NCBI GenBank assembly: GCA_029856105.1 | Contig: JAHQWH010000015.1 | Location: 128,001 to 192,000 of the forward strand | Origin: Promethearchaeia archaeon | Lineage (GTDB): Archaea; Asgardarchaeota; Lokiarchaeia; Sigyniarchaeales; SOKP01 | Direction of reading: 5' to 3' | Length of the DNA: 64,000 nucleotides | Part shown: positions 23,668 through 64,000 of the stretch, piece after piece | Position numbering within the stretch: position 1 is the stretch's first letter | Layout: each line of letters starts with the position of its first letter | Notes under the pieces: model-generated | Database searches by the model: none | Seen by the model: the letters and a program-made list of their open reading frames with translations, nothing else | Told to the model about the DNA's origin: nothing | Made by a program: the position numbers and the translations under genes

Positions 23668-23845
23668 AATTAAATCCTATTATTTTACCACTTACGCCTT
23701 AAAATATAGCTAAACAAAAATTTATCGTTGATGAAAAAACAAGTCAAATCGATATTATTTCCATAAAATAATTAGACAAACTAATAAGAAGAAAGCAATT
23801 TAATTATGCAATTGTTAATATAATTTAATTAGAAGAGGTTAAAAT

Positions 23846-24430: not shown

Positions 24431-24562
24431 TCTATTTTTTTTTTTAGAGCGATCTTTTGTTTAATAAAAAAATACTTTTTAAACCAATATTTATTGTATT
24501 TATATTAGTGTTTTTAAATTATTTATTTTAAAAAGCATCGATATTAGTAAAGCATAAAGCGC

Positions 24563-26938: not shown

Positions 26939-26968
26939 ACCTAAAACTAAATATGATTTAATGGTTTA

Positions 26969-26992
26969 TTTGTTTGTTTGTTTGTTTGTTTG
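26969..26992 (+). repeat. (TTTG)6 microsatellite in the U-rich terminator region after hypD
   Basis: Six perfect TTTG units between convergent genes. Confidence 0.85.
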
Positions 26993-27131
26993 TTAGTTTT
27001 AAATTTGAAATCATAAAACTAGAAGGATGGGAAAGTTAGAATTAAATATGATACAGAAATCTACTATGGTCAATTAACCTAGGAATTGCAGAAAAAAAAA
27101 AGAACCAAAAAAAATTAAATTAAAGAACTCT

Positions 27132-40022: not shown

Positions 40023-40258
40023 ATTAAAGTGAATTTAAATTAATTGCTTATTATCTATAAAGTGCCCAGCTGAGCTCAAAATAAAATCCCTATTAATTCG
40101 GATCATGCTAACCCTTAAAAAATTTGATGAAACTACTACACAAAAGGGAAAAGAATCCCATATAAATCATGTAGGTAAAACTTTTATTAAAGTTGAGTTT
40201 ACACTAATTATAAATATTTGACATAATAATAAAAATAAAATATAGGAAAGAGAGAAAA

Positions 40259-41554: not shown

Positions 41555-41555
41555 A

Positions 41556-43391: not shown

Positions 43392-43542
43392 AATTTATAT
43401 TTTTTTTTATAAATAATAATTCACAATTAAAAATCGGAAAGAAACATTTGATTAACTTATAATTAATCAATAAATTGTAATATCAAGAGTATTAAAAAAA
43501 ATCATAGAAAAGTAAAAAGTAAAAGAAATAGGGAAAACAAAA

Positions 43543-44736
43543 ATGGATAATATTATTGAAAATGCGAAAATCCACTTTGGGAAACTTATCAAAGAGCAGT
43601 TAGAAAGAGTAGAACGAATGAAAAAAGCCGGAGATTGGGTTGATTACACATCGATAAAACCAATTATCATCGGACTCGTTGGGGGCGATGGTATCGGACC
43701 ATTTATTACAAAACACGCGCAAGCCGTACTGGAATTCTTGTTAAAAGAAGAGAGAGAGAATGGGAGCGTTGAGCTTCGAGTAATTGACGGACTAACAATT
43801 GAAAACAGAGCAAAAGTAATGAAAGCGATCCCTGACGACGTGTTAGTAGAAATAAAAAAGTGTCATGTGTTATTAAAGGGGCCCACTACAACACCAAGAA
43901 AAGGGGATAAATGGCCAAACATCGAAAGTGCTAATGTAACCATGCGTCGTGAGTTGGATCTATTTGCAAACGTTCGTCCAGTTAAAGTACCTGAAAAAAA
44001 TATCGATTGGATGTTTTTCAGAGAAAATACTGAGGGAGCTTATGTATTAGGTTCTAAAGGTATAAGTATCTCAGATGATTTAGCCTTTGATTTTAAGGTT
44101 ATTACAACGCAAGGAGCAGATAGGATTATCAGACTAGCCTTTGATTACGCTAAAAAGAACAATATTAACAAAGTTACAGTAGTTACTAAAGCAAACGTTG
44201 TAAAAGCTACTGATGGGAAATTTCTTGCTATAGCAGAGGAAGTGGCAAAAGATTATCCCGAAGTAGAATGGGACGATTGGTATATCGACATTATGACGGC
44301 TAAGCTAGTAGATCCAGCAAGACAAAGCCAATTTAGAGTATTTGTTGCTCCGAACCTTTATGGGGATATCATTACTGACGAAGCCGCTCAGATTCAAGGA
44401 GGCGTTGGAACTGCGGGCTCTGCGAACATTGGAAAACAATATTCTATGTTTGAAGCGATTCACGGTTCAGCCCCCCGTATGGTAGAAGATGGTAGGGCAC
44501 AATACGCTGATCCTTCAAGTATTATCAAAGCAGCGGCTTTACTTATGAACCATATAGGATTTGTTGAAAAAGCGAAAAAGCTCGAAATGGCACTTGAGAT
44601 ATGTGCAACGCTAGAAAAGAAAATAACAATTACTGGCCGAAACGACGGAGCTACTGGCGAAGAGTTCGCAAAGTATATCATGGATACACTTACAGATCCA
44701 CAATTAGAAGAACATTTTAAAGAATATAGTAAATAA
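43543..44736 (+). CDS. icd: Isocitrate dehydrogenase (isocitrate/isopropylmalate dehydrogenase family)
   Basis: GDGIGP, KGPTTTP, SANVTMRRELDLFANVRP (IDH-type SxN), RENTEG, NLYGDIITDEAA, FEAIHGSAP; TCA gene context. Confidence 0.8.
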   Translation: MDNIIENAKIHFGKLIKEQLERVERMKKAGDWVDYTSIKPIIIGLVGGDGIGPFITKHAQAVLEFLLKEERENGSVELRVIDGLTIENRAKVMKAIPDDVLVEIKKCHVLLKGPTTTPRKGDKWPNIESANVTMRRELDLFANVRPVKVPEKNIDWMFFRENTEGAYVLGSKGISISDDLAFDFKVITTQGADRIIRLAFDYAKKNNINKVTVVTKANVVKATDGKFLAIAEEVAKDYPEVEWDDWYIDIMTAKLVDPARQSQFRVFVAPNLYGDIITDEAAQIQGGVGTAGSANIGKQYSMFEAIHGSAPRMVEDGRAQYADPSSIIKAAALLMNHIGFVEKAKKLEMALEICATLEKKITITGRNDGATGEEFAKYIMDTLTDPQLEEHFKEYSK

Positions 44737-49447: not shown

Positions 49448-50785
49448 ATGAAGAAAAAGAGAGTTGTTATAATCGGAGCCTTAGGTATGGATTTTCACCT
49501 GTTTAACACCGTCTTCAAAGATAATGAAGAATACGAGGTAATTGCTTTTACTATTGCTGGAGAGCAGAATGTAGGCACAATTGAAGGGGCGGAAAGGAAA
49601 TATCCGGCGGAATTAGCAGGTAAACTATATCCAAAAGGCATTCCAATGCTTCCCGAAGAACACATTGAAGAAATAATTAAACTTCATCAAATAGATGAGG
49701 TGGTGTTTGCATATTCTGATGTTTCGCACGAAGAATTAATGCATAAAGCATCTAGAGCGCTATCTGCTGGAGCTAACTATCGTTTGATATCGGGAAAATT
49801 CACCCAAATTAAATCTAAAAAACCCGTTGTAGCAATATGTGCTGTTAGAACTGGATGTGGTAAAAGCCAAGTTTCTAGAGCAACTTATAGGTATTTAATG
49901 AGCAAAGGTTATAAAGTTGTAGCAGTAAGAGAACCAATGCCTTATGGAGATTTGATAAAACAAAATGTTATGCGTTTTGAGAAGTACGAAGATTTAGATA
50001 AGTTTGATTGCACGATCGAGGAGCGGGAAGAGTACGAACCTTACATTGAACAGGGACTTGTGATTTATTCAGGAGTAGATTACGAAAAAATTGTTAGGGA
50101 AGCAGAAAAAGAAGCGGATGTAATCATCTTTGACGGTGGAAACAACGAGCTATCGTTTTATGTTCCAGATTTACTTTTCATCGTAGTAGACCCATTAAGA
50201 CCGGGACACGAGATGAAATATCATCCCGGCGAAGTAAACGCCCGATCTGCCGATGCGTTCGTCATTAATAAAATGAATAACGCTAAACCAGAAGATGTGA
50301 AAATCGTTGAGAATAATTTAAACGAATTAAATCCTGACGCAACAAAAATATATACAAATTCGGTTGTTACTATCGAAGGTAATCCTGATTTAAAGGGCAA
50401 AAAAGTAATTGTTGTAGAAGATGGGCCAACTTTAACGCATGGTAGTATGTCGTACGGCGCGGGATTTGTTGCGGCAACCAATAGTGGAGCTATAATTATA
50501 GATCCAAAACCTTATGTAACAGGTACTATGAAAAAAGTATTTGAAGAATTTCCACAGATCACACAGATAGTTCCAGCCATGGGATATAACGACCAACAGA
50601 TTAAAGACATGGAAGAAACTCTAAATAAAGCTGAATGCGAAATTATAATTGATGGCAGCCCTATTGATCTTGAAAAATTAATTAATAGCAATAAACCTAT
50701 CATCAGAGTCTCTTATGATATTGAACCTGTCAAAAGTCCAACGATAGAAGAAGTCTTAGATAAATTTATTGAAAAATTTTTATAA
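49448..50785 (+). CDS. arcE: Arginine synthetase (ArcE; family formerly annotated GTPase / cyclic 2,3-diphosphoglycerate synthetase-like)
   Basis: DFH.FN, YP.ELAG.LYP.GIP, FAYSDVSH, AVRTGCGKSQ P-loop, PMPYGDL, CTIEEREEYEP, DGGNN, HPGE.N, VEDGPTLTHG, PAMGY; OTC and carbamate kinase nearby. Confidence 0.75.
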   Translation: MKKKRVVIIGALGMDFHLFNTVFKDNEEYEVIAFTIAGEQNVGTIEGAERKYPAELAGKLYPKGIPMLPEEHIEEIIKLHQIDEVVFAYSDVSHEELMHKASRALSAGANYRLISGKFTQIKSKKPVVAICAVRTGCGKSQVSRATYRYLMSKGYKVVAVREPMPYGDLIKQNVMRFEKYEDLDKFDCTIEEREEYEPYIEQGLVIYSGVDYEKIVREAEKEADVIIFDGGNNELSFYVPDLLFIVVDPLRPGHEMKYHPGEVNARSADAFVINKMNNAKPEDVKIVENNLNELNPDATKIYTNSVVTIEGNPDLKGKKVIVVEDGPTLTHGSMSYGAGFVAATNSGAIIIDPKPYVTGTMKKVFEEFPQITQIVPAMGYNDQQIKDMEETLNKAECEIIIDGSPIDLEKLINSNKPIIRVSYDIEPVKSPTIEEVLDKFIEKFL

Positions 50786-50886
50786 AAATAATATTTTAAA
50801 TTTTAATATGTAAGAAGGGAAGATTACTCAAGATATCAAAAATCTCTTTTTTCATAAGTTATTTATTTTTTCAGATGGTGGAAAAT

Positions 50887-51083
50887 GTCTCCATGCCATA
50901 TATATACTTTAAGTTTGGGAGATATATCTTCTAAATAATACCCAAATAATTTGCATAGGTTTTCCCTTCATGATATGCTCCTTTACTATCTTGTCGAAGT
51001 GCTTCAGCTACTTTCTTAAGAAATGTAGAAAGAATTTGAGGATCAGTAAGTACTTTTCTATCAGCTTCAGGTAGTTTTTTCAT
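50887..51083 (-). pseudogene. Internal, frameshifted remnant of an alpha/beta hydrolase paralogous to 28417-29322
   Basis: MKKLPEADRKVLTDPQILSTFLKKVAEALRQDSKGAYHEGKTYA / FGYYLEDISPKLKVYIWHG versus the intact KKFPEPDREVMDDPKLLPLFIKESAEAFRQGNKGVIYEGKLYAKPWGFSLEDITPKLKVYLWHG. Confidence 0.8.
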
Positions 51084-51191
51084 ATAAATTTATTCATATT
51101 ATTGTCTAATTTTTCTAAGTAGTGTATAAAACATCTCATCTATTACTTAAATTATGATAGGTTTATATAATCGAAACTATTTAACTTCTTA

Positions 51192-53348
51192 TTGATGATA
51201 TTAGCTGCAAAGCTAAGGAAATCTTTACAAAAATGTTTAAAAAACAGGGATAAATTAATGTGTAAAAATAAAAAAATCAAAGTAAGAGTTGCATTATTAT
51301 TAATTCTGGCGATTTTTTTTTCAAGTCCTTTTATATTTTTAAAGACAAGCCAATCTGATGATGAAGCAAGAGCATTAGATGAGAGAAGTATCAGAAGTGC
51401 TAATAGCATATGGAGCTACACTGCGGGAGATGGTTTATTTTCGGTGGCAATCTCCTCCGATGGACATTACATTGTCGCAGGAGGCCATGATAACAAGGTG
51501 TATCTCTTCGATAAAGCCAGCCCCACCCCCCTATGGAACTACACGACGGGAGGTTGGGTACGTTCGGTGGCAATCTCCTCCGACGGGCAGTATATTGTCG
51601 CGGGAAGCGATGATGATCATGTGTATTTCTTCAATAAAACTAGCTCCACTCCACTATGGAACTTCACTACGATAGTTAATATATATTCAGTGGCAATTTC
51701 CTCCAATGGGCAGTACATTGCTGCGGGAATCTATCGCTCGGTCTATTTTTTCGATAAAGCCAGCTCCAATCCCCTATGGTATCACGACACGGGAGATGCG
51801 GCAGTAGTAACTTCGGTGGCGATCTCGTCCGACGGGCAGTACATTGCCGCAGGAAACTATGGTAACAAAACATATCTTTTTAATAAAGCCAGCTCTACTC
51901 CCCTATGGAGCTACACTGCGGGAGATCGGGTACAATCGGTGGCAATTTCCTCCGACGGACAGTACATTGCTGCGGGAAGCTATGATAACAAAGTATATCT
52001 CTTCGATAAAGCCAGCTCCACCCCACTATGGAGCTATACTACGGGAGATAATGTATATTCGGTGGCAATTTCCTCCGACGGGCAGAACATTGCCGCGGGA
52101 AGCTATGATGACAAGATATATCTCTTCGATAAAGCCAGCTTCACTCCCCTATGGAACTATACTACGGGAAATAGTGTATTTTCGGTGGCAATTTCCTCCG
52201 ATGGGCAGAACATTGCCGCAGGAAGCGTGGACGACAAGGTATATCTCTTCGATAAAGCCAGCTCCACCCCCCTATGGAACTATACTACGGGAAGTCATGT
52301 ACATTCGGTGACAATCTCCTCCGATGGGCAGTATATTGCCTCGGGAGGTTGGGGTAATACGATATATCTCTTCGATAACAAGCCCTATACATTTACATTG
52401 TCTACAGATGCCGATGTTCCTGATTTGGACGGTATATTTTCTTTAAATTGGACTGTTTCTTCTGGTGCAACTAATTACTCCGTGTATCGTCATTCCAGTT
52501 ATATTAATGAAATTAACGATAGTTTAATCCTTCTAGCGTATGAAATCACCGATCTGAGTTTATATTTGAGCGAATATTCAGATGAAACCTATTATTTCAT
52601 TGTTGTTGCAAATAACACTTACGGTGAGACCTTATCAAATTGCATTACGGTGGTGGTGGGCTTACTTCCGGGAAGCTTCACATTATCTTCAAATGCGAGC
52701 GATCCCGATGACAATGGCCTTTTTATTCTTTCTTGGACTGGTTCTTCTGGCGCAACTAATTACTCCATATATCAATACTCCAGTTTTATCACGGAAATTA
52801 ACGGCAGTTTAACCCTTCTAGCGGACGAAATCACCGATCCAAGCCTAGATTTGAGTGGATATTCGGACGGAACCTATTATTACATTGTTGTTGCGCATAA
52901 TCAAATTGGAGATACTTCATCAAACTGTATTACTGTAATTGTTCAAATTACCAAATCGTTCACGATCATTACTCCCAATATCTCCTCTTCGTGGGAATGT
53001 GGTACGTCTCAGTCTATATCTTGGTCTTCAACGGGGATTATTTTGAATATTAAACTTGAACTCTATAGAAATGATGTGTTCGTAATGGAGATTATTTCAA
53101 GTACTGCTAATAATGGCGAAGTTTACTGGGTAGTTTTCTCGGAACTCGCGAGTTCTGACCACTATCAGATCAAAATTATAGACGTATCTAATGCTTCCAT
53201 TTTCGCCTATAGCGACTACTTTGAAATAGAAAACACTTTACCAACAGAACCACCTGGTATTCCGGGATATAATGTACTATTTCTTATTGCTACTTTAGGT
53301 TCAATTATGGCATTAATTATGAAAAAATGTTCTAATTCCATGAAATAA
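51192..53348 (+). CDS. Cell-surface protein: signal/TM, 8 WD40-like repeats, two FN3-like domains, Ig-like Ser/Thr-rich domain, Loki-CTERM-like anchor (likely start ATG 51258)
   Basis: Eight ~41-aa repeats WxYTxG..V.SVAISSDGQYIAAG..D.KVYLFDKASSTPL; two L.WT.SSGATNYS...YY.IVVA.N..G...SN units; C-terminal PGIPGY + TM + KK. Confidence 0.88.
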   Translation: MMILAAKLRKSLQKCLKNRDKLMCKNKKIKVRVALLLILAIFFSSPFIFLKTSQSDDEARALDERSIRSANSIWSYTAGDGLFSVAISSDGHYIVAGGHDNKVYLFDKASPTPLWNYTTGGWVRSVAISSDGQYIVAGSDDDHVYFFNKTSSTPLWNFTTIVNIYSVAISSNGQYIAAGIYRSVYFFDKASSNPLWYHDTGDAAVVTSVAISSDGQYIAAGNYGNKTYLFNKASSTPLWSYTAGDRVQSVAISSDGQYIAAGSYDNKVYLFDKASSTPLWSYTTGDNVYSVAISSDGQNIAAGSYDDKIYLFDKASFTPLWNYTTGNSVFSVAISSDGQNIAAGSVDDKVYLFDKASSTPLWNYTTGSHVHSVTISSDGQYIASGGWGNTIYLFDNKPYTFTLSTDADVPDLDGIFSLNWTVSSGATNYSVYRHSSYINEINDSLILLAYEITDLSLYLSEYSDETYYFIVVANNTYGETLSNCITVVVGLLPGSFTLSSNASDPDDNGLFILSWTGSSGATNYSIYQYSSFITEINGSLTLLADEITDPSLDLSGYSDGTYYYIVVAHNQIGDTSSNCITVIVQITKSFTIITPNISSSWECGTSQSISWSSTGIILNIKLELYRNDVFVMEIISSTANNGEVYWVVFSELASSDHYQIKIIDVSNASIFAYSDYFEIENTLPTEPPGIPGYNVLFLIATLGSIMALIMKKCSNSMK
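51411..52383 (+). repeat. Intragenic tandem repeat, 8 x ~123 bp
   Basis: Recurring TCGGTGGCAATyTCCTCCGAyGGGCAG and TATCTCTTCGATAAAGCCAGC blocks; more GC-rich than the flanks. Confidence 0.9.
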
Positions 53349-53722
53349 AATTCTAAAAATTTTTTTTTTTATTTAATTTAAGGGGCTATTAAATATCATT
53401 ATAAGTACTTCTTTGTTATGATTTTTTCATAATTTAATCTTTTTCACATAATTTATGGGTATGAAAAATATTTTATCCTTGGGAATCGTGTATAGTTTAA
53501 TTCTTTGTAACTAATTGGTTGTTCTCCCAATAGTAATTCGTAATTCTTGCTTTTCCATAAGCAAATAATATTAAATTTCTGAATAGAAATCTTGAAATAA
53601 TTTTTCTAATTTGATCCAAGAGTCTCTATCGGATAACTTGAATTTCTTTCCGTTTTGTTTGAATAAATTGAATTTTAAATTTAATATCTATTTCTGAGAC
53701 CATAAGATTTATATAGAGAAAC

Positions 53723-53771
53723 TTACTTATAGTAAGTAATTTACTGATGGTAAGATAATTACTATTAGTAA
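53723..53771. promoter_or_regulatory. Three palindromic operator boxes TTACT-N3-RGTAA at 18-bp spacing upstream of the TetR gene
   Basis: TTACTTATAGTAA 53723-53735, TTACTGATGGTAA 53741-53753, TTACTATTAGTAA 53759-53771, just downstream of TATA-like TTTATATA (53708-53715). Confidence 0.75.
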
Positions 53772-53826
53772 ACTTAATTAATGACTTGTAATAACATAAA
53801 ATGAATAATTAAGCTGAAAGTGGTGA

Positions 53827-54498
53827 ATGAAAATTTCCAAATTATCTAGAAGAGAACGTGAAAAATTACAGCGTCGTAACGATATACTCAAAGCTGCTGA
53901 AAAAAGATTCTTTAATAAAGGCTATGATGAGGTTTCTATGGATGATATCGCGGGAGATTTAGAGCTTTCTAAAACAACGCTCTATTTGTATTTTAAAAAT
54001 AAACCTTCATTGTATTTTGCCGTAGTAATAAAAGGTATGGTTATCCTTAGGAATATATTGAAAAATGCTATAAAAAACGAGGAATCAGGATTAGGAAAAA
54101 TAATGGGCATAATTCGAGCTTACTTTGATTACATACAAATTCATCTAGATTATTATGGCCTTAATCTTTCATCTAGAGCCATTCGTTTTACGAAAATGCT
54201 TAAACCTAACGAGGAGGGTGATACAGAAATTGAAAATGCTGAAGAGTATATCGGATTAACAAAAGAATTACTTGAAATGTTAATTGACGCTGTCAGTTTG
54301 GGAATTAAGGATGGTACAATTAGAAAAAACCTGAATCCATTACAGACAGTAATTTTCTTGGGTTCTACCATTGATTTTATAGTACAAATATCCCCCGAAT
54401 ATAAATTACTCTTAGAGATGTATAGCATAACTGCTGAGGAATATCTTCAACACTCGATTGATGTGTTATTACGAGGTCTAGCTGGGGAAAAAAAATAA
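53827..54498 (+). CDS. TetR/AcrR family transcriptional regulator
   Basis: ILKAAEKRFFNKGYDEVSMDDIA...LSKTTLYLYFKNK HTH; GIKDGTIR. Confidence 0.92.
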   Translation: MKISKLSRREREKLQRRNDILKAAEKRFFNKGYDEVSMDDIAGDLELSKTTLYLYFKNKPSLYFAVVIKGMVILRNILKNAIKNEESGLGKIMGIIRAYFDYIQIHLDYYGLNLSSRAIRFTKMLKPNEEGDTEIENAEEYIGLTKELLEMLIDAVSLGIKDGTIRKNLNPLQTVIFLGSTIDFIVQISPEYKLLLEMYSITAEEYLQHSIDVLLRGLAGEKK

Positions 54499-54515
54499 TT
54501 GGAGGAAGATAAAAA

Positions 54516-55079
54516 ATGGAAAAAAATAAAATATTAATTGCGTATGGAACTCGTTACGGAGCGACAACTAGTACCGCAGAAGAAATTTCCAAAGTTCTTC
54601 AAGGTGAAGGATTTGATGTAAAAGTTGTAAATCTCCAAAAAGATAAGGTAAAAGATATCACAAATTTTGAACTTGTTGTTATTGGAAGTGGAATGAAAAT
54701 GGATATGTGGACGACTAAAGCTAAAGCATTTTTAAAGAAGTTTAGTGGTGAATTCAAGAAAAGGAAAGTGGCCATTTTCGTGTCATCAGGTGGACGGGCA
54801 CTCATGGAACATAAAGGAGAACTTGATGAAATTGATAGAATAACTAAAAAATACCTTGAAGATAAAGCTTCTAAATATGGTTTGAATCCAATATCAATGA
54901 CTATGTTTGGAGGTGTTTGGGATTATAATCAGATTTCTAAAATTTTTAGAAAATTCTTGGATGCAGAAAAAGAAAATTTTATCGCGGCAGGAATAAAAGA
55001 AACAGAGCCAGGAGTCTATGACACTAGAAATTGGGAGAATATTCGTGCATGGGCTAAAGAGTTAGCTAGCAAGATTTAA
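54516..55079 (+). CDS. Flavodoxin-domain protein (HemG/Flavodoxin_5-like)
   Basis: AYGTRYGATTSTAEEI, VIGSG, FGG, DTRNWENIRAWA. Confidence 0.85.
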   Translation: MEKNKILIAYGTRYGATTSTAEEISKVLQGEGFDVKVVNLQKDKVKDITNFELVVIGSGMKMDMWTTKAKAFLKKFSGEFKKRKVAIFVSSGGRALMEHKGELDEIDRITKKYLEDKASKYGLNPISMTMFGGVWDYNQISKIFRKFLDAEKENFIAAGIKETEPGVYDTRNWENIRAWAKELASKI

Positions 55080-55247
55080 AAAATCCCAATTCAACATAAT
55101 AAAACTTAAGAACTTTTAAATCTCTTTTTGTAAATTTCTTTTTTAATTTCTTTTAAATAATATTTAATTCTGAAGTCTCATTAAATCATCCATAATTCAA
55201 AATTATGTTTTAAATTTAAAAAATAGAACTTAATTGAGTAAAAATCT

Positions 55248-57428
55248 ATGATTTTAGCAGAAATGAAATATGAGCTTCACGAAGTCCAAAAAGGATACGC
55301 TAATAGGACTCTGTTCATTAATCTTTCAAACAATGAGATTAAAATCAAGCCTGTAACTGATATAATGAAAGAAAAGTTTATCGGTGGGAAAGGATTTGAT
55401 CTTTGGCTCATGTGGAATGGACTTCCTCAAGATAGAATTGTTAAATGGGACGATTCCGAAAACGAAATTTGCATTTCTTCTGGACCTTTAGGAGGGAACA
55501 TCTTTTACCCTGGTTCGGGGAAATCAATTGTTACAACAATATCTCCTTTAACGGATATTATCGTGGATTCTAATGTTGGAGGTTATTTCGGTCCGTATTT
55601 AAAATTCTCGGGTTTTGATGCAATTGAAATTCAAGGTAAAGCTCAAAAAGAGGTTCTAATATACATAGATGGTGTTGAGGGTGTTGTTCAAATCAAAGAA
55701 GTTGAAAAATCAGAGGGGTTATCTAATTATTCTCATGAATTAACTCAGCAACTTACTGAAGTGTACGCACAAGATGACCGTGAAAAACAACGAATCTCGG
55801 TCGTAACCACGGGTCCTGCCGCACAACACACGAATTGGGGGTTGTTAAACTTTTCTTGGTATGTTCCTGGCCGTAAATGGGCCTCAAGCAAACAAGCTGG
55901 GCGAGGGGGAATTGGGACCGTTTTTTATGATAAAAAAGTTAAAGCGTTGGTTTGTCGTACTCCAAAAGTTACAGTTGGTTCTAATCATCCTGCTAATTTA
56001 GAAGAAGCTAGAAAAGTAGGGATAGCACATACCCAAGAAATAATTAAACTTGACCCAATACAAAACGAAATGCGTAGAGTTGGAACGGGACATCTTCCTG
56101 AGATCATGAATGTTACTGACCTTCTACCAACAGAAAATTATCGCTTCGGAAGACACAAAGAAATTAATGGAAAAGATATCCCGTATAGTAGAGAGATAAT
56201 GAGAGAGATATATTCTGGAAAAGAAGGCGGGGATGGATGTTGGATTGGATGTACTGTTAGCTGTTCTCATTATTCAGAAGGCCACGAAGTTTTAACGGGA
56301 CCATTTAAGGGTCAAAAATTGATTGTTGATGGCCCAGAATACGAAACAATAGCCGGATGTGGGTCAAATTGGGGCGTTTGGGACCCAAAATGGGTTTTAG
56401 AAGTTAATTTTTACTGCGATACTTACGGCTTAGATACAATTTCAGTTGGGACAGGTATAGCATTTGTTATGGAGTGTTATGAAGCGGGTATTTTAAATAA
56501 GGAAAGGACTGGAGGATTGGAATTAAATTTCGGAGATGTTGAAGCTGCGGTTGAGTTAATTCACCACATGGCTAAAGGTAAAGGTTTTGGAGTTATAGTT
56601 GGAAAAGGTATTAAATATATGAAAAAATATTTTGTTGAAAACTTTGGAGCGGACCCACAATTTGTTCAAGATATTGGTATGGAACACAAAGGTTTAGAAT
56701 TTTCTGAGTATGTAACCAAAGAATCATTAGCGCAACAGGGGGGATATGGATTAACGAATAAAGGCCCACAACACGACGAGGCTTGGCTTATCTTTGACGA
56801 TGTAATTAGAAACTCGATTCCAACATTCGAAGACAAAGCTAAAGCTTTGAGGTATTTCCCATTATGGAGAACTTGGTTTAGTTTATGCGGTTTATGCAAG
56901 CTACCGTGGAACGATATCCAACCATTAAGTCAAGCAGATTACCCCCTCAAAGATCCTAAAACGGGAGAGTTAGTTCGAGCAAAAATTCCCGATCACGTTG
57001 AAAATTACGTTAAATATTATTCAGCAGTTACGGGACATCAATCAACATCGAAAGATCTCATAAAGATGTCTGAAAGAGTGTATACATTTCAAAGGATATT
57101 TAACATTAGGTTGGGCAAAGGGCTTCGAAAACACGATTCAAATCTACCTTATAGAGCAGTGGGACCAGTTACTCCACTTGAATACGAAAGTCGTGTTGAG
57201 AGGTACGATACACAGCTTAAAGAGTTAGGGCTTAAATTTAACGGTAAATCAACCGAAGAAAAAATTACAATACTACGTAAGCATCGTGAAGAACAGTATA
57301 CAAAACTTCAAGACGCGGTTTATTTAGAGCGAGGATGGAACAATAACGGTTGTCCTACTATAGAGATGGTACGAAAATTGGGAATTGATTTTGACGAAGT
57401 AATTGATGTTATCTCTCCTTATCAATAA
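55248..57428 (+). CDS. Aldehyde:ferredoxin oxidoreductase family tungsto/molybdo-enzyme
   Basis: FIGGKG, SPLT, DSNVGG.FG, AGRGGIG, CWIGCTVSC, GPEYET, CD.YGLDTIS, LCGLCK, Y..RGW. Confidence 0.88.
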   Translation: MILAEMKYELHEVQKGYANRTLFINLSNNEIKIKPVTDIMKEKFIGGKGFDLWLMWNGLPQDRIVKWDDSENEICISSGPLGGNIFYPGSGKSIVTTISPLTDIIVDSNVGGYFGPYLKFSGFDAIEIQGKAQKEVLIYIDGVEGVVQIKEVEKSEGLSNYSHELTQQLTEVYAQDDREKQRISVVTTGPAAQHTNWGLLNFSWYVPGRKWASSKQAGRGGIGTVFYDKKVKALVCRTPKVTVGSNHPANLEEARKVGIAHTQEIIKLDPIQNEMRRVGTGHLPEIMNVTDLLPTENYRFGRHKEINGKDIPYSREIMREIYSGKEGGDGCWIGCTVSCSHYSEGHEVLTGPFKGQKLIVDGPEYETIAGCGSNWGVWDPKWVLEVNFYCDTYGLDTISVGTGIAFVMECYEAGILNKERTGGLELNFGDVEAAVELIHHMAKGKGFGVIVGKGIKYMKKYFVENFGADPQFVQDIGMEHKGLEFSEYVTKESLAQQGGYGLTNKGPQHDEAWLIFDDVIRNSIPTFEDKAKALRYFPLWRTWFSLCGLCKLPWNDIQPLSQADYPLKDPKTGELVRAKIPDHVENYVKYYSAVTGHQSTSKDLIKMSERVYTFQRIFNIRLGKGLRKHDSNLPYRAVGPVTPLEYESRVERYDTQLKELGLKFNGKSTEEKITILRKHREEQYTKLQDAVYLERGWNNNGCPTIEMVRKLGIDFDEVIDVISPYQ

Positions 57429-57455
57429 TAATAAATATTTTAAATATGATTCTAA

Positions 57456-59537
57456 ATGGAAAACATAACCAAACATCCCATCCTGGAAATTCCCGAAAGA
57501 AAGAGAATAAAATTCAAATTTGACGGGAAAGCATTAAACGGATTTGAGGGAATGGTTATATCTTCAGCTTTATTTCTTAATAAAATTAAAATTTTTGGTC
57601 ATCACATAAAAGATTCTAGTCCTCAGGGAATGTTTTGTGCTAATGGACAATGCTCTCAGTGTAATGTAATCGCCGATGGTATTCCAGTAAAAGCTTGTAT
57701 GACGCTTCTAACAGATGGAATGGAAATAAGAAGTTGTGATGGTTTACCAGAACTACCTCTTGTGGACAGTGCCGTAGAAGTTGGCGATATAGATATTATT
57801 AATACAGAAGTTCTTGTTATTGGTGGGGGTCCAGCTGGATTATCGGCTACCAAACTTTTTGGAGAGCGTGGAATAGATGTCTTACTAATTGACGATAAAA
57901 ATAGACTTGGCGGTAAACTAGTACTTCAAACCCACAAATTTTTTGGTTCCCAAGAAGTATATGCTGGTAAGCGCGGTATCGATATAGCAGAGATTCTTGG
58001 TGAGATTGTAAGTTCGTTGAACTCAATAAAAGTTTGGCTCAATAGCACGGTTGTAGCTGTATTTAGCGACAATTTTATTGGTGTTTTGAAGAAAAATGAA
58101 GAATATGTGTTAGTTAGGCCGAATTATCTGTTGATTGCAACTGGAGCAAGAGAGAAAATGTTAGTTTTTCCGGGAAATACTCTTCCAGGAGTGTACGGTG
58201 CAGGTGCATTTCAAACTTTAGTTAACCGCGATCTCGTTAAAGCTGCCGATAAAGTTTTTATAGTTGGCGGTGGAAATGTTGGATTAATTGCGGGATATCA
58301 CGCTATCCAAGCAGGAATAGATGTTGTTGGTTTGATCGAAGCTCTATCTCTATGTGGTGGTTATAGAGTTCACGAAGATAAACTTAGAAGGTTAGGAGTT
58401 CCCATTTACACCAATCATACAATTATTTCTGCAAACGGCCAAAGCAAGGTAGAATCGATCACAATTGGTAAATTAGACGATAAATTTAACCTTATTCCCG
58501 GAACTGAAAGAACATTTAGTTGCGATACTATCTTAATTGCGGTAGGGTTAAATCCCGTTAACGAATTTTATAACAAAGCAAAACAATTCAATATGAAAGT
58601 TAGGGTTGCTGGAGACGCTCAAGAAATTGCTGAAGCGTCAGCTGCGATTTTTACAGGAAGAATTGAAGCGCTAAAAATGCTAAAAGAAATGGGAATCGAA
58701 ATAGAAGAAAATATCGATGAATTGGAAAAATTTGCAAACATTATGAAAGCAAAACCTCCAGCTCCCCGTGAAATAAAAATAATTGAAAAAGAAGATGGTA
58801 TTTTTCCTCTCTTTCATTGCAATCAAGAAATTCCTTGTAACCCTTGCACATCTGTGTGTCCTCAAGGGCAAATTGAGACCGTGGATAACTTAATCACGCA
58901 ATTACCATACTTTAAAGGCGAAGAGGACTGTATAGGCTGCGGAAAGTGCGTAGCTGTATGTCCGGGATTGGCAGTAACGCTAGTTGACTATCGAAAAGAC
59001 AAGGAATACCCATCAGTTACATTTCCTCTTGAATTAACTTCTGAAAAAATAAGTGTTGGGCAAAAAGTTATCGTTGTAAGCGATAACCGAGAATTAGGAG
59101 AATTTGAAGTTAAACGCTCAAGATTTCTTAAAGAGTTTCCAAAAACTCTATTAATTACCGTCAAAATTCCTGCAGAATTAGCAAAAATTGCCGTTGCTAT
59201 CAAACTTCAAAAAACTACGTATGATCAACCCTTAGATATATATCAAAAATCCTATACTGACGACGATGTTATAGTTTGTAGGTGTGAACGCGTATCAGTG
59301 GGCGAAATTCGAAAATGGATTCGATATGGAATTAAAGATCTCAACGAATTAAAAGCTTTGACTAAAGTTGGAATGGGAGCTTGCGGCGGGAAGACTTGTA
59401 CGCCATTAATTAATCGGATTTTTCGCGAAGAAGGCGTTTTACCGGAAGAGGTTATTCCTAGCACAAGTAGGCCATTATTTATAGAAGTCCCTATGAGTGC
59501 TTTTGCTAGAGCTAAAGTAAAGAAGGGAGGTAAATAA
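57456..59537 (+). CDS. Fused Fe-S flavoprotein: 2Fe-2S + FAD/NAD-binding + 2[4Fe-4S] + BFD-like domain (L-proline dehydrogenase / sarcosine oxidase alpha-like)
   Basis: FCANGQCSQC...KAC; IGGGPAGL; ATGARE...PGV; GGGNVG; CNPCTSVCP and CIGCGKCVAVCP; VCRCE...GMGACGGKTC...RP. Confidence 0.82.
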   Translation: MENITKHPILEIPERKRIKFKFDGKALNGFEGMVISSALFLNKIKIFGHHIKDSSPQGMFCANGQCSQCNVIADGIPVKACMTLLTDGMEIRSCDGLPELPLVDSAVEVGDIDIINTEVLVIGGGPAGLSATKLFGERGIDVLLIDDKNRLGGKLVLQTHKFFGSQEVYAGKRGIDIAEILGEIVSSLNSIKVWLNSTVVAVFSDNFIGVLKKNEEYVLVRPNYLLIATGAREKMLVFPGNTLPGVYGAGAFQTLVNRDLVKAADKVFIVGGGNVGLIAGYHAIQAGIDVVGLIEALSLCGGYRVHEDKLRRLGVPIYTNHTIISANGQSKVESITIGKLDDKFNLIPGTERTFSCDTILIAVGLNPVNEFYNKAKQFNMKVRVAGDAQEIAEASAAIFTGRIEALKMLKEMGIEIEENIDELEKFANIMKAKPPAPREIKIIEKEDGIFPLFHCNQEIPCNPCTSVCPQGQIETVDNLITQLPYFKGEEDCIGCGKCVAVCPGLAVTLVDYRKDKEYPSVTFPLELTSEKISVGQKVIVVSDNRELGEFEVKRSRFLKEFPKTLLITVKIPAELAKIAVAIKLQKTTYDQPLDIYQKSYTDDDVIVCRCERVSVGEIRKWIRYGIKDLNELKALTKVGMGACGGKTCTPLINRIFREEGVLPEEVIPSTSRPLFIEVPMSAFARAKVKKGGK

Positions 59538-59539
59538 TC

Positions 59540-60706
59540 CTGGTAGAATTCGACGTGGTTATCATAGGGGCAGGAAGTGTTGGAGTTCCAACGGCCTTAG
59601 CTACTGCAGAGAATGGACTTAAAACACTCGTTTTAGATTCTCTTCCTTCCGTTGCCCAAGGGGATAATAAGCACGCTATTGGAGGGATCAGAGCTACACA
59701 TTCGCTCAAAAGTAAGATATGGTTATGTCAAAGATCTATAGAAGTTTTTTCTACTTGGAGGGATTTACACGGTGATGACATCTGGTGGGAACAAGGAGGG
59801 TACTCCTTTTTAGCTTTTACCGAAGAACACGAAAAAATGCTAAAAGAGACAGTTCGACAACAAAAAGAATATGGGTTAAATATAAAATATGTAGACAAAG
59901 AAAAAATAAAAGAACTTATACCTGGGATTAATAGTGAGAATTTATTAGGAGGCACATTTAGTCCTGAAGATGGAAATGCTTCTCCGTTATTATCTCTTCA
60001 TTCATTTTATCGTAAATCTAAAGAATTAGGAGCTGAATATAACTTTAATGAAGAAGTTATTGATATTATTACAAAAGATAAAGCAGTTTTAGGAGTTAAA
60101 ACTAGTAAAGCTGAATATAAAACACAATTTGTAATTAATGCTGCAGGCGGTCGCGCTAAAGACATTGGAGATATGATTGGTATTGATTTACCCGTCATTC
60201 CTGAAAGCCATGAAGCAGGGATCACGGAGCCAGTTAAGAAATTCTTCTCTACGATGGTAATTGATATTAACCCTGCCACAGATACAAAGTTTGGAAACTC
60301 AAAAAATTACTATTTTTATCAAAACAAAGAAGGAAAAGTTATCTTTTGTTTGACTCCTGATCCTAATATTCCCGGCATAGATCGACGCGAAACAAGCTTA
60401 TACTTACCTCAAATTTCAAAACGTATGGTTAATTTATTACCTCGATTAAAAAATATAAAAATTAGGAGAACATGGCGCGGTTTGTACCCTATGTCACCAG
60501 ATGGCAATCCAATTATCGGCAAAGTTAACGATATTGAAGGATATATTAATGCTGTTGGATTATGTGGACAGGGATTTATGCTGGGGCCAGGCCTTGGCGA
60601 ACTATTAAGTCGCTTACTAATAGATAAATTAAATCAAAAGGATAAAGAAATTTTAACCGAACTTGCATACGGACGAGATTTTTTTGAAGTAGAAGATTTA
60701 AAGTAA
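59540..60706 (+). CDS. FAD-dependent amino-acid dehydrogenase (DAO family; proline dehydrogenase/sarcosine oxidase beta-like); probable CTG start at 59540
   Basis: FDVVIIGAGSVG, GGIR, DG.ASP, VINAAGG, RTWRGLYPMSPDGNPIIG, GLCGQGFMLGP. Confidence 0.82.
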   Translation: MVEFDVVIIGAGSVGVPTALATAENGLKTLVLDSLPSVAQGDNKHAIGGIRATHSLKSKIWLCQRSIEVFSTWRDLHGDDIWWEQGGYSFLAFTEEHEKMLKETVRQQKEYGLNIKYVDKEKIKELIPGINSENLLGGTFSPEDGNASPLLSLHSFYRKSKELGAEYNFNEEVIDIITKDKAVLGVKTSKAEYKTQFVINAAGGRAKDIGDMIGIDLPVIPESHEAGITEPVKKFFSTMVIDINPATDTKFGNSKNYYFYQNKEGKVIFCLTPDPNIPGIDRRETSLYLPQISKRMVNLLPRLKNIKIRRTWRGLYPMSPDGNPIIGKVNDIEGYINAVGLCGQGFMLGPGLGELLSRLLIDKLNQKDKEILTELAYGRDFFEVEDLK

Positions 60707-60787
60707 ACATTATGATAAATAATCCTATAAATCAAGTTAAACTAATAAATTTGATAAATAAATAAACAATAAAATTATAAAGTAAAA

Positions 60788-61732
60788 GTGGTATTAAAAA
60801 TGGTCCGACATTTAACCAAAATTTCTGACTTTTCTAAAGCAGAATGTGAGAATGTAATTAATAAAGCAATAGAAATTAAGAAGAATCCAGACAAATTTGA
60901 CACTGCCTTAAAAGGAGAGACGCTTTTAATGGTATTTGAAAAACCATCGCTAAGAACTAGAATCTCTTTTGAAGTAGGAATGCAACAGTTAGGTGGTCAT
61001 GCGATTTTTTATTCAATAAAGGAATCTCCTCTTGGCAAGAAAGAAAATATTCACGACACAGCAAAAACTGCCTCGAGATTCGTTCATTTAATAGCAGCAA
61101 GAGTGTTTAAAAGACATGATATTTGGGATTTAGCCCAATATGCAGATGTCCCAGTAATTAATATGCTTGACGATTTCGCGCATCCGTGTCAAATGATTGG
61201 GGATTTTTTAACTATAAAAGAAAAGAAAGAAAGATTGGAAGATTTAAAAATAGCCTACTTTGGAGATGCGTATAACAATGTTACCTACGATTTAATGCGA
61301 ATAGCCGCTATGTTTGGTCTAAAGTTAGATGTTGCTTGTCCAGAGGGAACAGCTTATACGCCTGAACAAATTGTTCTTGAAGAGGTGGCTCAAATTTCAA
61401 AAAAAACTGGAGCAAAAGTGAATGTAGTTCATAATGCTTTCGATGCTGCAAAAGATTCTGACATAATTTATACCGATTCTTGGATGTCTTACGGTATTCC
61501 AGTTGAAGAAGAGGATGACCGAAGGAAGATTTTCATGCCATATCAAGTATCTCTAAAAATAATGAAAGCCGCGAAACCAGACGCAATTTTTATGAATTGT
61601 TTACCGGCAAAACGAGGTTACGAACAAACCGCTGAAGTTATTGATGGTTCTCAATCAATTGTATTTGATCAAGCAGAAAATAGATTACATGGTCAAAAAG
61701 CAATTATGCTCTTTTTACGAGAAAAATTTTAA
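60788..61732 (+). CDS. arcB: Ornithine carbamoyltransferase (likely start ATG 60800)
   Basis: FEKPSLRTR, HPCQ, GD..NNV, YTDSWMSYG, NCLPA.RG.E, DQAENRLH; adjacent to carbamate kinase. Confidence 0.9.
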   Translation: MVLKMVRHLTKISDFSKAECENVINKAIEIKKNPDKFDTALKGETLLMVFEKPSLRTRISFEVGMQQLGGHAIFYSIKESPLGKKENIHDTAKTASRFVHLIAARVFKRHDIWDLAQYADVPVINMLDDFAHPCQMIGDFLTIKEKKERLEDLKIAYFGDAYNNVTYDLMRIAAMFGLKLDVACPEGTAYTPEQIVLEEVAQISKKTGAKVNVVHNAFDAAKDSDIIYTDSWMSYGIPVEEEDDRRKIFMPYQVSLKIMKAAKPDAIFMNCLPAKRGYEQTAEVIDGSQSIVFDQAENRLHGQKAIMLFLREKF

Positions 61733-61796
61733 ATAGTAAGTTAGATATTATTATTTTTTCAATTTTGGTAATTATCTAACTACTAGAGGTTTTTTT

Positions 61797-62711
61797 TTGA
61801 AAACATTAATCGTTGCGCTTGGAGGAAATGCCCTCATTAAACCTGGGGAAAGAGGAACCCCCGAACAAATGATTAATAATCTACAATCCCCTATTAAACA
61901 AATTGCAGAATTATCTGAAGAGTATAATATTATTATTACCCATGGCAATGGCCCTCAAGTAGGTGCGCTACTCCTTCAACAAGAAGCTACCGATGAGATT
62001 ACAAGAATGCCTTTACAAATTTTAGTAGCCGAAACTCAAGGACAGATTGGATTTTTAATTGAATCGACCCTTGATGAAGAGCTCATGCACCTTGGGATTG
62101 ACCTTGATAAATATTTTATTACTGTTTTGACTTATGTTGAAGTTGATCCCAACGATCGAGCGTTTAAACACCCAACTAAACCAATTGGACCTATATATAA
62201 AAAAAAGCAACCTGGATATGTGAAGACTTCCAAAGGTTGGAGGCGGGTAGTTCCATCACCAAAACCATTAAGAATTGTTCAATCACGAGAAATTAAAAAG
62301 TTAATCCAAGAGAACTTCATCGTTATATCTTGTGGTGGTGGTGGAATTCCTGTAATGAAGGAAGGAACTCGCTTTCAAGGTATTGAAGCCGTTATCGATA
62401 AAGATCTCGCAAGCGCAAAGTTAGGCGAACAAGTAAACGCAGATATTTTAATAATTGCTACAGATGTAGAAAAAGTGGCGTTAAATTACGGCAGAATTGA
62501 TTATAAGTACCTCGATAGGGTTTCAACAACAGATGCAAAAGAATACATGAAGCAAGAACATTTTCCTCCTGGAAGTATGGGTCCTAAAATACAAGCAGTA
62601 ATAAATTTCTTAGAATCTGGTGGCGAGCAAGCCATTATAACTTCAATTGAAAAAATTAAAGAAGCTTTAGAGGGTACATCCGGTACCCATTTCTTTATTA
62701 AGGATAATTAA
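61797..62711 (+). CDS. arcC: Carbamate kinase
   Basis: ALGGNAL, THGNGPQVG, PTKPIG, WRRVVPSP, GGGGIPV, EAVIDKD, GSMGPK. Confidence 0.93.
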   Translation: MKTLIVALGGNALIKPGERGTPEQMINNLQSPIKQIAELSEEYNIIITHGNGPQVGALLLQQEATDEITRMPLQILVAETQGQIGFLIESTLDEELMHLGIDLDKYFITVLTYVEVDPNDRAFKHPTKPIGPIYKKKQPGYVKTSKGWRRVVPSPKPLRIVQSREIKKLIQENFIVISCGGGGIPVMKEGTRFQGIEAVIDKDLASAKLGEQVNADILIIATDVEKVALNYGRIDYKYLDRVSTTDAKEYMKQEHFPPGSMGPKIQAVINFLESGGEQAIITSIEKIKEALEGTSGTHFFIKDN

Positions 62712-62822
62712 TTTATATAAAATAAGCAGATTATACCCGTAAATCAAATAATTCTTAATTTCTATATAAAATAAGATTATGTAATAAATATATAATTATA
62801 AATAATCTAAAATAGCATATAC

Positions 62823-63482
62823 ATGGTTAGAAAAATTGATAAAGATATCAAGCAATACTATGCCGACAGAGCATATGAATATAATAAGACATATTTAAGA
62901 CCTGAACGTCAAAAAGATATTAAAAAACTTCATAAATTGCTAACCACCCTATTAAAAGGTCATTTGGTACTTGAGGTTGCATGTGGAACTGGCTATTGGA
63001 CTAAGACAATTGCATCGGTTTCAAAATTTATTACTGCTGTTGATGTAAATGATGAAGTTCTTCAAATAGCAAAAAGTCGCAGAATTCCTTCAGATAAGGT
63101 AATTTATGTTCAAGATGATGTTTATAAATTAAATAAAATTCAAAATAATTTTTCTGCTGGTTTTGCTGGTTTTTGGTGGTCGCACATATTAAAATCTAAA
63201 TTAAAAAGATTTATTGCCTTATTTCATTCAAAGCTTCAACCAAACGCTCTTGTTATTTTTATTGATAATCGACGTGTGAAGGGAAGCTCTACACCAATAA
63301 GTCGAATTGATATTCATGGAAATTCTTACCAAATAAGGAAATTAGAGGATGGTCGAGAATATGAAATATTGAAAAATTTTCCTACTAAGAAAGAAATTCG
63401 CGAAACTATTGGAAATAAAGTTAAAAATCTTAAGATTAAATTTTTGACATATTTTTGGATTGTATCATATAATATTGAATAA
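62823..63482 (+). CDS. Class I SAM-dependent methyltransferase
   Basis: YYADRAYEY, VLEVACGTGYWT, FWWSHI. Confidence 0.88.
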   Translation: MVRKIDKDIKQYYADRAYEYNKTYLRPERQKDIKKLHKLLTTLLKGHLVLEVACGTGYWTKTIASVSKFITAVDVNDEVLQIAKSRRIPSDKVIYVQDDVYKLNKIQNNFSAGFAGFWWSHILKSKLKRFIALFHSKLQPNALVIFIDNRRVKGSSTPISRIDIHGNSYQIRKLEDGREYEILKNFPTKKEIRETIGNKVKNLKIKFLTYFWIVSYNIE

Positions 63483-63647
63483 TATGTTTCATAAACGGAC
63501 TTATTTGACATAAATAAATCTCACATAAAAACAAAGTTAATTTTTAATTTACAAAAAAAAATAGTTGTATCTGATTTTGGGAAAAATTTTTTAAAATTAC
63601 GGTTATAACCCAATTTTTATATAAAAAATAAGTTAGATTTTAATTCT

Positions 63648-64000
63648 TTACGCTACCAGCACATTTTCGATAATTTTCAAAGCCCAATCGATTTGATCTT
63701 TAGTTATAATTAGAGGCGGGGCAAAACGAATAATTGTAGAATGAGTGTGTTTGGCCAACACGCCCTTATCTTTAAACATTTCGACTATGTGCCTTGCATC
63801 TGATTCAAATTCAATCGCTAATAATAGACCTTTACCTCTAACCTCTTTTATTGGAACTATAGTTTTCTTTTTTGCGATATTTCTAAGCCCTTCTAGAAAA
63901 TAACCTCCAAATTCTTTGGCTCTTTGAGCTAAATGGTCGTCAATATGAATCTCTAACGATTTCATAGCAACCGCACTAGCTAAAGGGTTTCCTCCAAATG
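63648..64000 (-). CDS. rocD: Ornithine aminotransferase (class III PLP), C-terminal part; the gene extends beyond the window
   Basis: Open from the window edge: FGGNPLASAVAMKSL..., EVRGKGLLLAIE, GVLAKHTHSTIIRFAPPLII (RocD-type LAKxTH..IIRFAPPL). Confidence 0.78.
   Translation of the reverse strand, partial: FGGNPLASAVAMKSLEIHIDDHLAQRAKEFGGYFLEGLRNIAKKKTIVPIKEVRGKGLLLAIEFESDARHIVEMFKDKGVLAKHTHSTIIRFAPPLIITKDQIDWALKIIENVLVA

Follow-up and report, generated by a model that had tools for sequence, protein, structure and literature searches.

A probable arginine synthetase pathway cluster enclosing a proline dehydrogenase-type flavoenzyme and a long aldehyde oxidoreductase in an Asgard archaeon

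What becomes of arginine in an archaeon whose genes for ornithine carbamoyltransferase (OTC) and carbamate kinase (CK) stand in one cluster with a homologue of the arginine synthetase ArcE, an aldehyde oxidoreductase (AOR) and a flavoenzyme of the proline dehydrogenase type? The question is raised by a stretch of 64,000 nucleotides from a Promethearchaeia archaeon of the Lokiarchaeia (contig JAHQWH010000015.1, analysed in full as G000:C19:128001-192000 and called the window here), which belongs to an assembly of 3.66 Mb in 238 contigs, 92% complete and 6% contaminated. No known relatives stand closer to the eukaryotic host lineage than the Asgard archaea, whose cultured members ferment amino acids. 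A model that had seen only the letters and open reading frames of the window had proposed an energy-conserving hub for arginine, ornithine and proline in its last part (the original prediction). We conclude that the region is probably an arginine synthetase pathway cluster (ArcE, OTC, CK and ornithine aminotransferase, OAT) with an acquired, fused proline dehydrogenase and a long AOR, and that its net action is catabolic; the arginine–ornithine–proline hub as such is well supported. Numbers prefixed with g, f, L and G below are working labels for genera, families, loci and genomes.

The genes named in the prediction, from arcE to the CK gene, lie on the plus strand in the stretch it had given, with the aminotransferase gene convergent, and their identities can be read from gene calls and curated model cut-offs (Table 1). 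In its full length (G000:C19:191651-192907; L160:1648-2907, minus strand) the aminotransferase passes the equivalog model TIGR01885 with 520.5 bits against the 378.4 required, while the OTC fails the putrescine carbamoyltransferase model (288 of 500 required bits). From the AOR gene to the CK gene the intergenic gaps are 27, 17, 81 and 64 bp. The gene list was nevertheless incomplete, since it missed a WD40, a TetR and a flavodoxin gene in the arcE–AOR interval and a methyltransferase gene between those for CK and the aminotransferase.

This arrangement is not due to chance. Synteny across relatives had been proposed as a check, and the full array, arcE-AOR-pdhA-pdhB-arcB-arcC with a convergent aminotransferase gene, recurs in four genera of the organism's own family (g1, g2, g4, g5) and in one genus of a sister family (g11); arcE abuts the AOR gene in the simplest forms, and the array is often preceded by genes for succinyl-CoA synthetase (SCS), ATP-citrate lyase (ACL) and isocitrate dehydrogenase (IDH), which lie upstream of arcE in the window as well. 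Two other genera of the sister family (g10, g13) have a compact, co-oriented arcE-arcB-arcC-rocD operon, with the AOR gene and pdhAB 90–250 kb away, and the simplest reading is that AOR-pdhAB entered an older four-gene operon in the own family and one sister genus. ArcE, the proline dehydrogenase beta subunit (PDH-beta) and OAT share one genus-level distribution, opposite to that of ArgG and ArgC; related genomes are not independent samples, and no statistics were drawn from this distribution.

By homology to Thermococcus kodakarensis (PMC11032458), ArcE would convert arginine, ADP and phosphate to citrulline, ATP and ammonia, OTC would phosphorolyse the citrulline, CK would yield a second ATP, and the aminotransferase would carry ornithine to glutamate semialdehyde/1-pyrroline-5-carboxylate (P5C). 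The most likely reaction of the flavoenzyme is the interconversion of L-proline and P5C, with electrons that would pass through its own 2Fe-2S and 4Fe-4S domains. As aminotransferase and flavoenzyme would both reach P5C, this compound would be the meeting point of arginine, ornithine, proline and, via the dehydratase HypD, hydroxyproline. In the last step the AOR might form glutamate by oxidising glutamate semialdehyde and pass the electrons to flavodoxin or ferredoxin.

How secure is the first enzyme? The ArcE homologue has no Pfam or NCBIfam match and is single copy in its genome. One match was found in 39 of 41 genomes of the class Thermococci (50–58% identity over residues 2–443), the class that contains the Methanofastidiosia locus L065; the complete genomes among them (1.7–2.2 Mb) gave 56–58% identity over the full length. 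One Thermococci genome (G327) has its arcE homologue at about 1.98 Mb and two operons for proline dehydrogenase at about 95 kb. A solved cyclic 2,3-diphosphoglycerate synthetase (9sxb) is matched only faintly (E=1.5e-3, 20.9 bits); the P-loop RTGCGKSQ is conserved and the homologue is distinct from that enzyme. TK2200 has been described as an annotated putative GTPase with a P-loop fold, low similarity to cyclic 2,3-diphosphoglycerate synthetase and homologues in Lokiarchaeota (PMC11032458), a description that our protein fits, being single copy and showing only that faint likeness. The nearest public proteins carry the source labels Promethearchaeota, Lokiarchaeota, Hodarchaeota and Hermodarchaeota, and 'predicted GTPase' was the only protein-cluster name that look-ups returned. 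A six-sequence ArcE alignment was also used as a query over genome contigs, and in about a third of the best 80 loci, which span many phyla and include none from Thermococcales, genes for CK and/or OTC adjoin arcE. This adjacency across phyla supports the family function independently of PMC11032458.

Orthology to the T. kodakarensis enzyme, as originally predicted, therefore stands in so far as the protein is the single-copy counterpart of the Thermococcales group and is linked to OTC, CK and OAT, but its invariant residues are altered and it belongs to a separate clan. Where Thermococcales read GAAGRDFH, RHPMPYG and WDGGNND, it reads GALGMDFH, REPMPYG and FDGGNNE, placing Met, Glu and Glu at the otherwise invariant Arg, His and Asp positions of the characterised type. 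The first motif is GALG(M/F/Y)DFH in this protein and its relatives, while most other ArcE proteins follow the Thermococcales pattern. Two observations count against a simple transfer of function: among 115 ArcE sequences the residue pair is His/Asp in 91 and Glu/Glu in 24, with no mixed cases, and the Arg of the N-terminal motif is usually lost in the Glu/Glu group. All 24 form one clan in the tree (support 0.97), drawn from the organism's own order (72–96% identity), one Helarchaeota genome, one Undinarchaeota genome and a few others, and the characterised activity may not carry over to it unchanged. OTC adjoins the arcE of this clan in the Asgard order, Helarchaeota (L016), Undinarchaeota (L017) and UBA543 (L018), usually with CK too. 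With these partners, and a transferase that passes the OTC model and fails the putrescine one, we infer that the clan acts on arginine and citrulline. The same model results rule out a variant in which ArcE would act on agmatine alongside a putrescine carbamoyltransferase. Six other Asgard families (f7, f9, f14, f21, f23, f27) have ArcE of the ordinary type (50–58% identity), its gene standing alone.

As a separate observation, eight loci from several bacterial phyla (L019, L022, L034, L043, L085, L088, L089, L091) have ArcE and CK followed by a gene pair resembling SCS beta and alpha (37–50% identity), without OTC, a recurrent and unexplained partnership.

The rest of the genome agrees with a pathway built on ArcE rather than on arginine deiminase (ADI). 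As predicted, the window has no ADI; PF02274 has no match there or anywhere in the 92%-complete assembly (a control search matched three of 14 control genomes), and a search of the same assembly found no ArgG, ArgH or ArgC either. Carbamoyl-phosphate synthetase (CPS) and ProC are present, with no ProA-type match in the genome beyond one nonspecific Aldedh gene, and a PutA-type Pro_dh was not found. The proposed entry of hydroxyproline rests on a bona fide HypD, which satisfies the equivalog model NF043068. Its gene is flanked (21814-28268) by genes for an X-Pro dipeptidyl-peptidase-like hydrolase of the CocE/NonD type, an FMN reductase and an M19 dipeptidase, in what looks like a small module for peptides rich in proline and hydroxyproline; no glycyl-radical activating enzyme is encoded beside hypD, and no genome-wide search for one was made.

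The two flavoprotein genes had been read as a proline-oxidising pair, and by module content, gene order and structural match they are indeed of the Thermococcales L-proline dehydrogenase type. Three genes that follow one another in Thermococcales align collinearly with the 693-aa protein (residues 3–376 at 42–46%, 453–576 at 36–39% and 603–670 at 40–46% identity), which is therefore a fusion of the three subunits alpha, gamma and delta of the heterotetrameric enzyme described from T. profundus. Its best Protein Data Bank (PDB) match is 1Y56_A. The beta gene directly follows those for alpha, gamma and delta in Thermococcales, the same order as here, and the D-amino-acid oxidase (DAO)-type subunit is closest to 1Y56_B, the beta subunit of the Pyrococcus horikoshii L-proline dehydrogenase (2.7e-49; next chain 1.6e-22). 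Among solved chains it is thus nearer to characterised L-proline dehydrogenases than to sarcosine or glycine oxidases, a comparison that is incomplete for hydrogen cyanide (HCN) synthase, opine dehydrogenase and D-hydroxyproline dehydrogenase, which have no solved chains. A fused alpha (691–703 aa) is paired with a beta in six Asgard families (f1, f2, f7, f20, f24, f29).

The weakest step of the route is the last, and that the AOR oxidises glutamate semialdehyde to glutamate is a tentative assignment, since this AOR also occurs where the other cluster genes do not. By models and PDB comparison it fits no characterised subfamily (AOR sensu stricto; formaldehyde oxidoreductase, FOR; glyceraldehyde-3-phosphate oxidoreductase, GAPOR; WOR5): it falls far below the NCBIfam equivalog cut-offs (NF007354, 102 against 868 bits; GAPOR, 42.7 against 1300), with 1AOR (1.3e-49) and FOR 1B25 (1.3e-45) as nearest solved relatives. 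Aligned to 1AOR, it keeps the Cys triplet, the final Cys, the Glu of GPEYE and the His, residues whose roles in the family are given in PMC12096430.

Could the AOR instead be a general or otherwise specialised aldehyde oxidoreductase, inactive on glutamate semialdehyde, that became a neighbour of the arc and pdh genes in one lineage? We consider this quite conceivable, if somewhat doubtful. P5C from ornithine would then either serve as an electron sink, being reduced to proline by ProC or by the flavoenzyme running backwards, or be turned into glutamate by the single NAD(P)-type Aldedh. The distribution of the AOR speaks for this alternative and weighs against its role in the cluster: orthologues (about 730 aa, 55–90% identity) occur in 168 of 301 genomes of the phylum, including 61 of 76 in family f9, where PDH-beta is found in 0 of 76, and orthologues of 55–71% identity are present without the cluster in f9, f7, f24 and f29 and in genera g3, g6, g8 and g9, the last four belonging to the own family and lacking any detected ArcE, PDH-beta or aminotransferase. 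The neighbours at 20 off-cluster Asgard loci are unrelated and differ from lineage to lineage (Arf-like GTPases, Ldh_2, genes resembling those of heterodisulfide reductase (Hdr), phosphoenolpyruvate carboxykinase and polyferredoxin). Bacterial orthologues (51–54% identity; one Anaerolineae, one Rectinemataceae and one Cloacimonadales genome) also adjoin unrelated genes, with no neighbours related to glutamate semialdehyde at these three loci, a small sample without sulfate reducers. Moreover, the genome under study has 11 AOR paralogues besides ProC and its Aldedh gene, and its arcE and AOR genes are 4.5 kb apart.

Other evidence favours a glutamate-semialdehyde oxidase. The arcE–pdhA placement of the AOR gene is tight, with 27 bp to pdhA, and is kept in at least five genera. 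A specific P5C dehydrogenase was not detected in the genome, whose only Aldedh-family gene, cut by contig ends (G000:C71:1-921, G000:C194:2-700), is of a nonspecific type best matched by models for succinic semialdehyde and lactaldehyde dehydrogenases. There is also precedent for C5 carboxy-aldehydes, as P. furiosus FOR prefers a C5 dialdehyde and its crystal binds glutarate, a near analogue of glutamate semialdehyde (PMC12096430). A second, independent and loose AOR/PDH-like neighbourhood occurs in family f17. Of the role originally proposed for the AOR, then, the tight operon placement stands, but the assignment does not extend beyond the operon position in one lineage, the orthologue being widespread without ArcE, PDH-beta or OAT. 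A flavodoxin 78–83% identical to that of the window is encoded upstream of the AOR in L013, L123, L125, L127 and L129, directly so in most, and is a candidate electron carrier for it.

Two layouts outside the cluster are recorded here in their own right. In family f17 (L151:12946-19532, L159) the PDH-like genes are unfused (an alpha of 484 aa, a gamma of 170 aa and a divergent beta), and an AOR of the short canonical type (612 aa) is encoded 1.3 kb away. In Cloacimonadales (L210:7409-12565) the AOR orthologue is split into N- and C-terminal genes with a NuoF-like gene between them (domains Complex1_51K, NADH_4Fe-4S and ferredoxin), followed by ThiF-like and Aldedh genes.

In which direction does the pathway run? 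We think that net flow is catabolic, in an amino-acid fermenter, though this sense is assumed and tempers our interpretation. The alternative is that the cluster is mainly synthetic or works both ways, with ornithine made from glutamate semialdehyde/P5C, OTC forming citrulline and ArcE forming arginine at the expense of ATP and ammonia, the semialdehyde being supplied either by the flavoenzyme, from proline, or by the AOR, which would work on glutamate as an acid reductase with reduced flavodoxin or ferredoxin. We judge this rather unlikely, yet a rival to be taken seriously. ArgG and ArgC are found in g3, g6, g7 and g8, where ArcE, OAT and PDH-beta are not, and are rare or missing in the cluster-bearing g1, g2, g10, g11 and g13; g4 has ArgC in three of four genomes, ArgG in none of four and ArcE in all four, and g5 has both the cluster and ArgG/ArgC. 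This pattern fits auxotrophs that burn arginine taken up from outside, or an ArcE that replaces the last steps of arginine synthesis. The presence of CPS and ProC, the lack of a ProA-type match other than the nonspecific Aldedh gene, and the in vivo contribution of ArcE to arginine synthesis in T. kodakarensis, with such a role raised for organisms that have CPS and lack ArgGH (PMC11032458), would suit synthesis. Yet a canonical pathway lost in its entirety is just as compatible with arginine auxotrophy and catabolism, and the pattern comes from the same non-independent genomes. CK and an aminotransferase of the rocD type usually accompany catabolism, and synthesis would not need CK beside CPS; the ArcE reaction has its equilibrium on the side of citrulline and ATP (PMC11032458), and acid reduction by the AOR would be thermodynamically costly. 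The predicted catabolic direction is thus favoured by CK, the aminotransferase and the published equilibrium, while genus g4 and the presence of CPS favour synthesis, and the near-complementarity with ArgG/ArgC would also fit synthetic or two-way use.

The substrate of the flavoenzyme is a further point of doubt. From its sequence, L-proline is our best guess rather than a finding, because the beta subunit is only 30–33% identical to both Thermococcales beta types, too low for specificity to be transferred, and because the wider family of DAO-type heteromers includes D-hydroxyproline dehydrogenase, opine dehydrogenase and HCN synthase (PMC4575208); both facts tell against proline. The beta subunit might thus oxidise a D-amino acid, D-hydroxyproline, sarcosine or an opine, for instance octopine, which would release arginine into the pathway. 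In family f24 (L141:5908-13846) the fused alpha/beta pair is divergent to a PutA-type Pro_dh, beside which a second proline dehydrogenase would be redundant. A non-proline substrate nevertheless seems improbable to us: the archaeal proline dehydrogenase operon has the same four modules in the same alpha-gamma-delta-beta order, the P. horikoshii enzyme is by far the best solved relative, the genome has no other proline dehydrogenase, and the neighbours are always arginine, ornithine or proline genes. The f24 locus continues with ProRS-like and arginase-family genes, so that arginine and proline genes are linked there in another manner. A D-hydroxyproline route in which the AOR would oxidise 2-oxoglutarate semialdehyde was also considered and is unsupported, the cluster having no epimerase or deaminase and HypD already handling hydroxyproline.

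Least probable, and little more than a speculation, is that AOR, fused flavoprotein and beta subunit form one redox machine acting on P5C/glutamate semialdehyde, a new kind of tungsten-flavin complex. It may be a dismutase that oxidises one molecule to glutamate at the tungsten site and uses the electrons, carried by the Fe-S domains, to turn another into proline, which, if true, would be an internal Stickland reaction without a partner organism; or it may work by confurcation, pooling low-potential aldehyde and high-potential proline electrons onto NAD+. Either form, if true, could explain the alpha-gamma-delta fusion and the AOR gene abutting pdhA.

Table 1. Coordinates (positions in the window), strand and basis of identification of the features discussed.
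Feature	Position	Strand	Basis
HypD, trans-4-hydroxy-L-proline dehydratase (glycyl radical)	24563-26938	+	NF043068, 1280 bits (cut-off 1100)
arcE-type arginine synthetase homologue, 445 aa	49448-50785	+	P-loop RTGCGKSQ; Glu/Glu ('type B') clan
WD40/beta-propeller protein, 718 aa	51192-53348	+	Pfam WD40 and propeller families; Kre9/KNH-like Ig domain
TetR-family regulator	53827-54498	+	PF00440, 45 bits; ends 17 bp before flavodoxin gene
Flavodoxin, 187 aa	54516-55079	+	Flavodoxin_5, Flavodoxin_1
Long-form AOR-family tungsten/molybdopterin oxidoreductase, 726 aa	55248-57428	+	AFOR_N and AFOR_C
Fused Fe-S flavoprotein (alpha-gamma-delta), 693 aa	57456-59537	+	Fer2_4, Pyr_redox_2, 4Fe-4S dicluster, BFD-like 2Fe-2S
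DAO-family beta subunit, 383 aa	59555-60706	+	PF01266, 188 bits
OTC (ArcB/ArgF)	60788-61732	+	TIGR00658, 359.5 bits (cut-off 280.85)
CK (ArcC)	61797-62711	+	TIGR00746, 370 bits (cut-off 358.25)
SAM-dependent methyltransferase	62823-63482	+	Methyltransf_25, Methyltransf_11
rocD-type ornithine aminotransferase, 3' part (gene runs past window)	63648-64000	-	Aminotran_3

The additional genes within the cluster vary among relatives. A copy of the WD40 gene (76% identical) stands at the same site only in L124, and the gene is absent from the compact loci L126, L130, L131 and L155; it is a lineage-specific insert outside the pathway. The TetR gene recurs in L123, and together with the WD40 and flavodoxin genes it is a variable insert. 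The methyltransferase gene was not detected in related loci and has no apparent link to the pathway. Further upstream the window carries genes for aconitase, a class II fumarase/aspartase-type lyase, SCS, a two-subunit ACL and IDH (19032-20963, 31133-32512, 38102-44736), and SCS-ACL-IDH also precedes arcE in the relatives L014, L130, L131 and L133.

If our interpretation of a catabolic arginine synthetase cluster is right, the locus offers a testable route by which each arginine would yield two ATP through substrate-level phosphorylation, and in which arginine, ornithine, proline and hydroxyproline would meet at a single intermediate. The altered-core ArcE clan, the single-chain accessory subunits of the proline dehydrogenase and the widespread clade of long AORs are all directly assayable, and the near-complementarity with ArgG/ArgC raises the question of whether, in biosynthesis, ArcE stands in for argininosuccinate synthetase and lyase. 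The layout had been proposed as possibly undescribed. For arcE itself this does not hold, as Michimori et al. (2024, PMC11032458) list Lokiarchaeota among its carriers and note that in some genomes it lies close to arcB/arcC. Beyond that paper, the literature searched yielded no published link between Asgard archaea and arginine synthetase, hydroxyproline dehydratase or CK/ornithine, nor any published joining of arcE with an AOR or a proline dehydrogenase, or of an AOR with a proline dehydrogenase in this sense, and the novelty of the AOR/proline dehydrogenase association stands to that extent. This analysis adds the Glu/Glu clan of ArcE, the fusion of alpha, gamma and delta, a four-gene operon as the likely earlier arrangement, the distribution of ArgG and ArgC, and evidence that the AOR also occurs independently of the cluster.

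Among known systems, the closest is the arginine synthetase pathway of T. kodakarensis (ArcE TK2200, ArcB and ArcC; PMC11032458, PMC13260591), which has the same three enzymes, no ADI, and an OAT that links ornithine to P5C; ArcE is again single copy, and the protein described here is 56–58% identical to that of Thermococcales. Here, however, the genes lie in a single cluster with an AOR and a proline dehydrogenase inside it, the ArcE clan has Glu/Glu for His/Asp and Met, Phe or Tyr for Arg, and the genome has CPS, which T. kodakarensis lacks. The classical ADI (arcABC) pathway shares OTC, CK, the ornithine product and the ATP drawn from carbamoyl phosphate, but this genome has no detected ADI, and ArcE would conserve a second ATP. 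The heterotetrameric (alpha-beta-gamma-delta) dye-linked L-proline dehydrogenase of T. profundus and Pyrococcus, cited in PMC4575208 together with the alpha4beta4 enzyme 1Y56 (its refs 27, 30, 31), has the four modules in the same order; in the Asgard cluster alpha, gamma and delta make up one 693-aa chain, beta is only 30–33% identical, and the gene lies among arginine genes. The AOR, finally, shares the two-domain fold family, the 4Fe-4S cysteines and the second-shell Glu and His of P. furiosus AOR (1AOR) and FOR (1B25/1B4N), but it is about 120 residues longer, falls below the AOR and GAPOR cut-offs, and belongs to an uncharacterised clade with members in Anaerolineae, Spirochaetota and Cloacimonadota as well.

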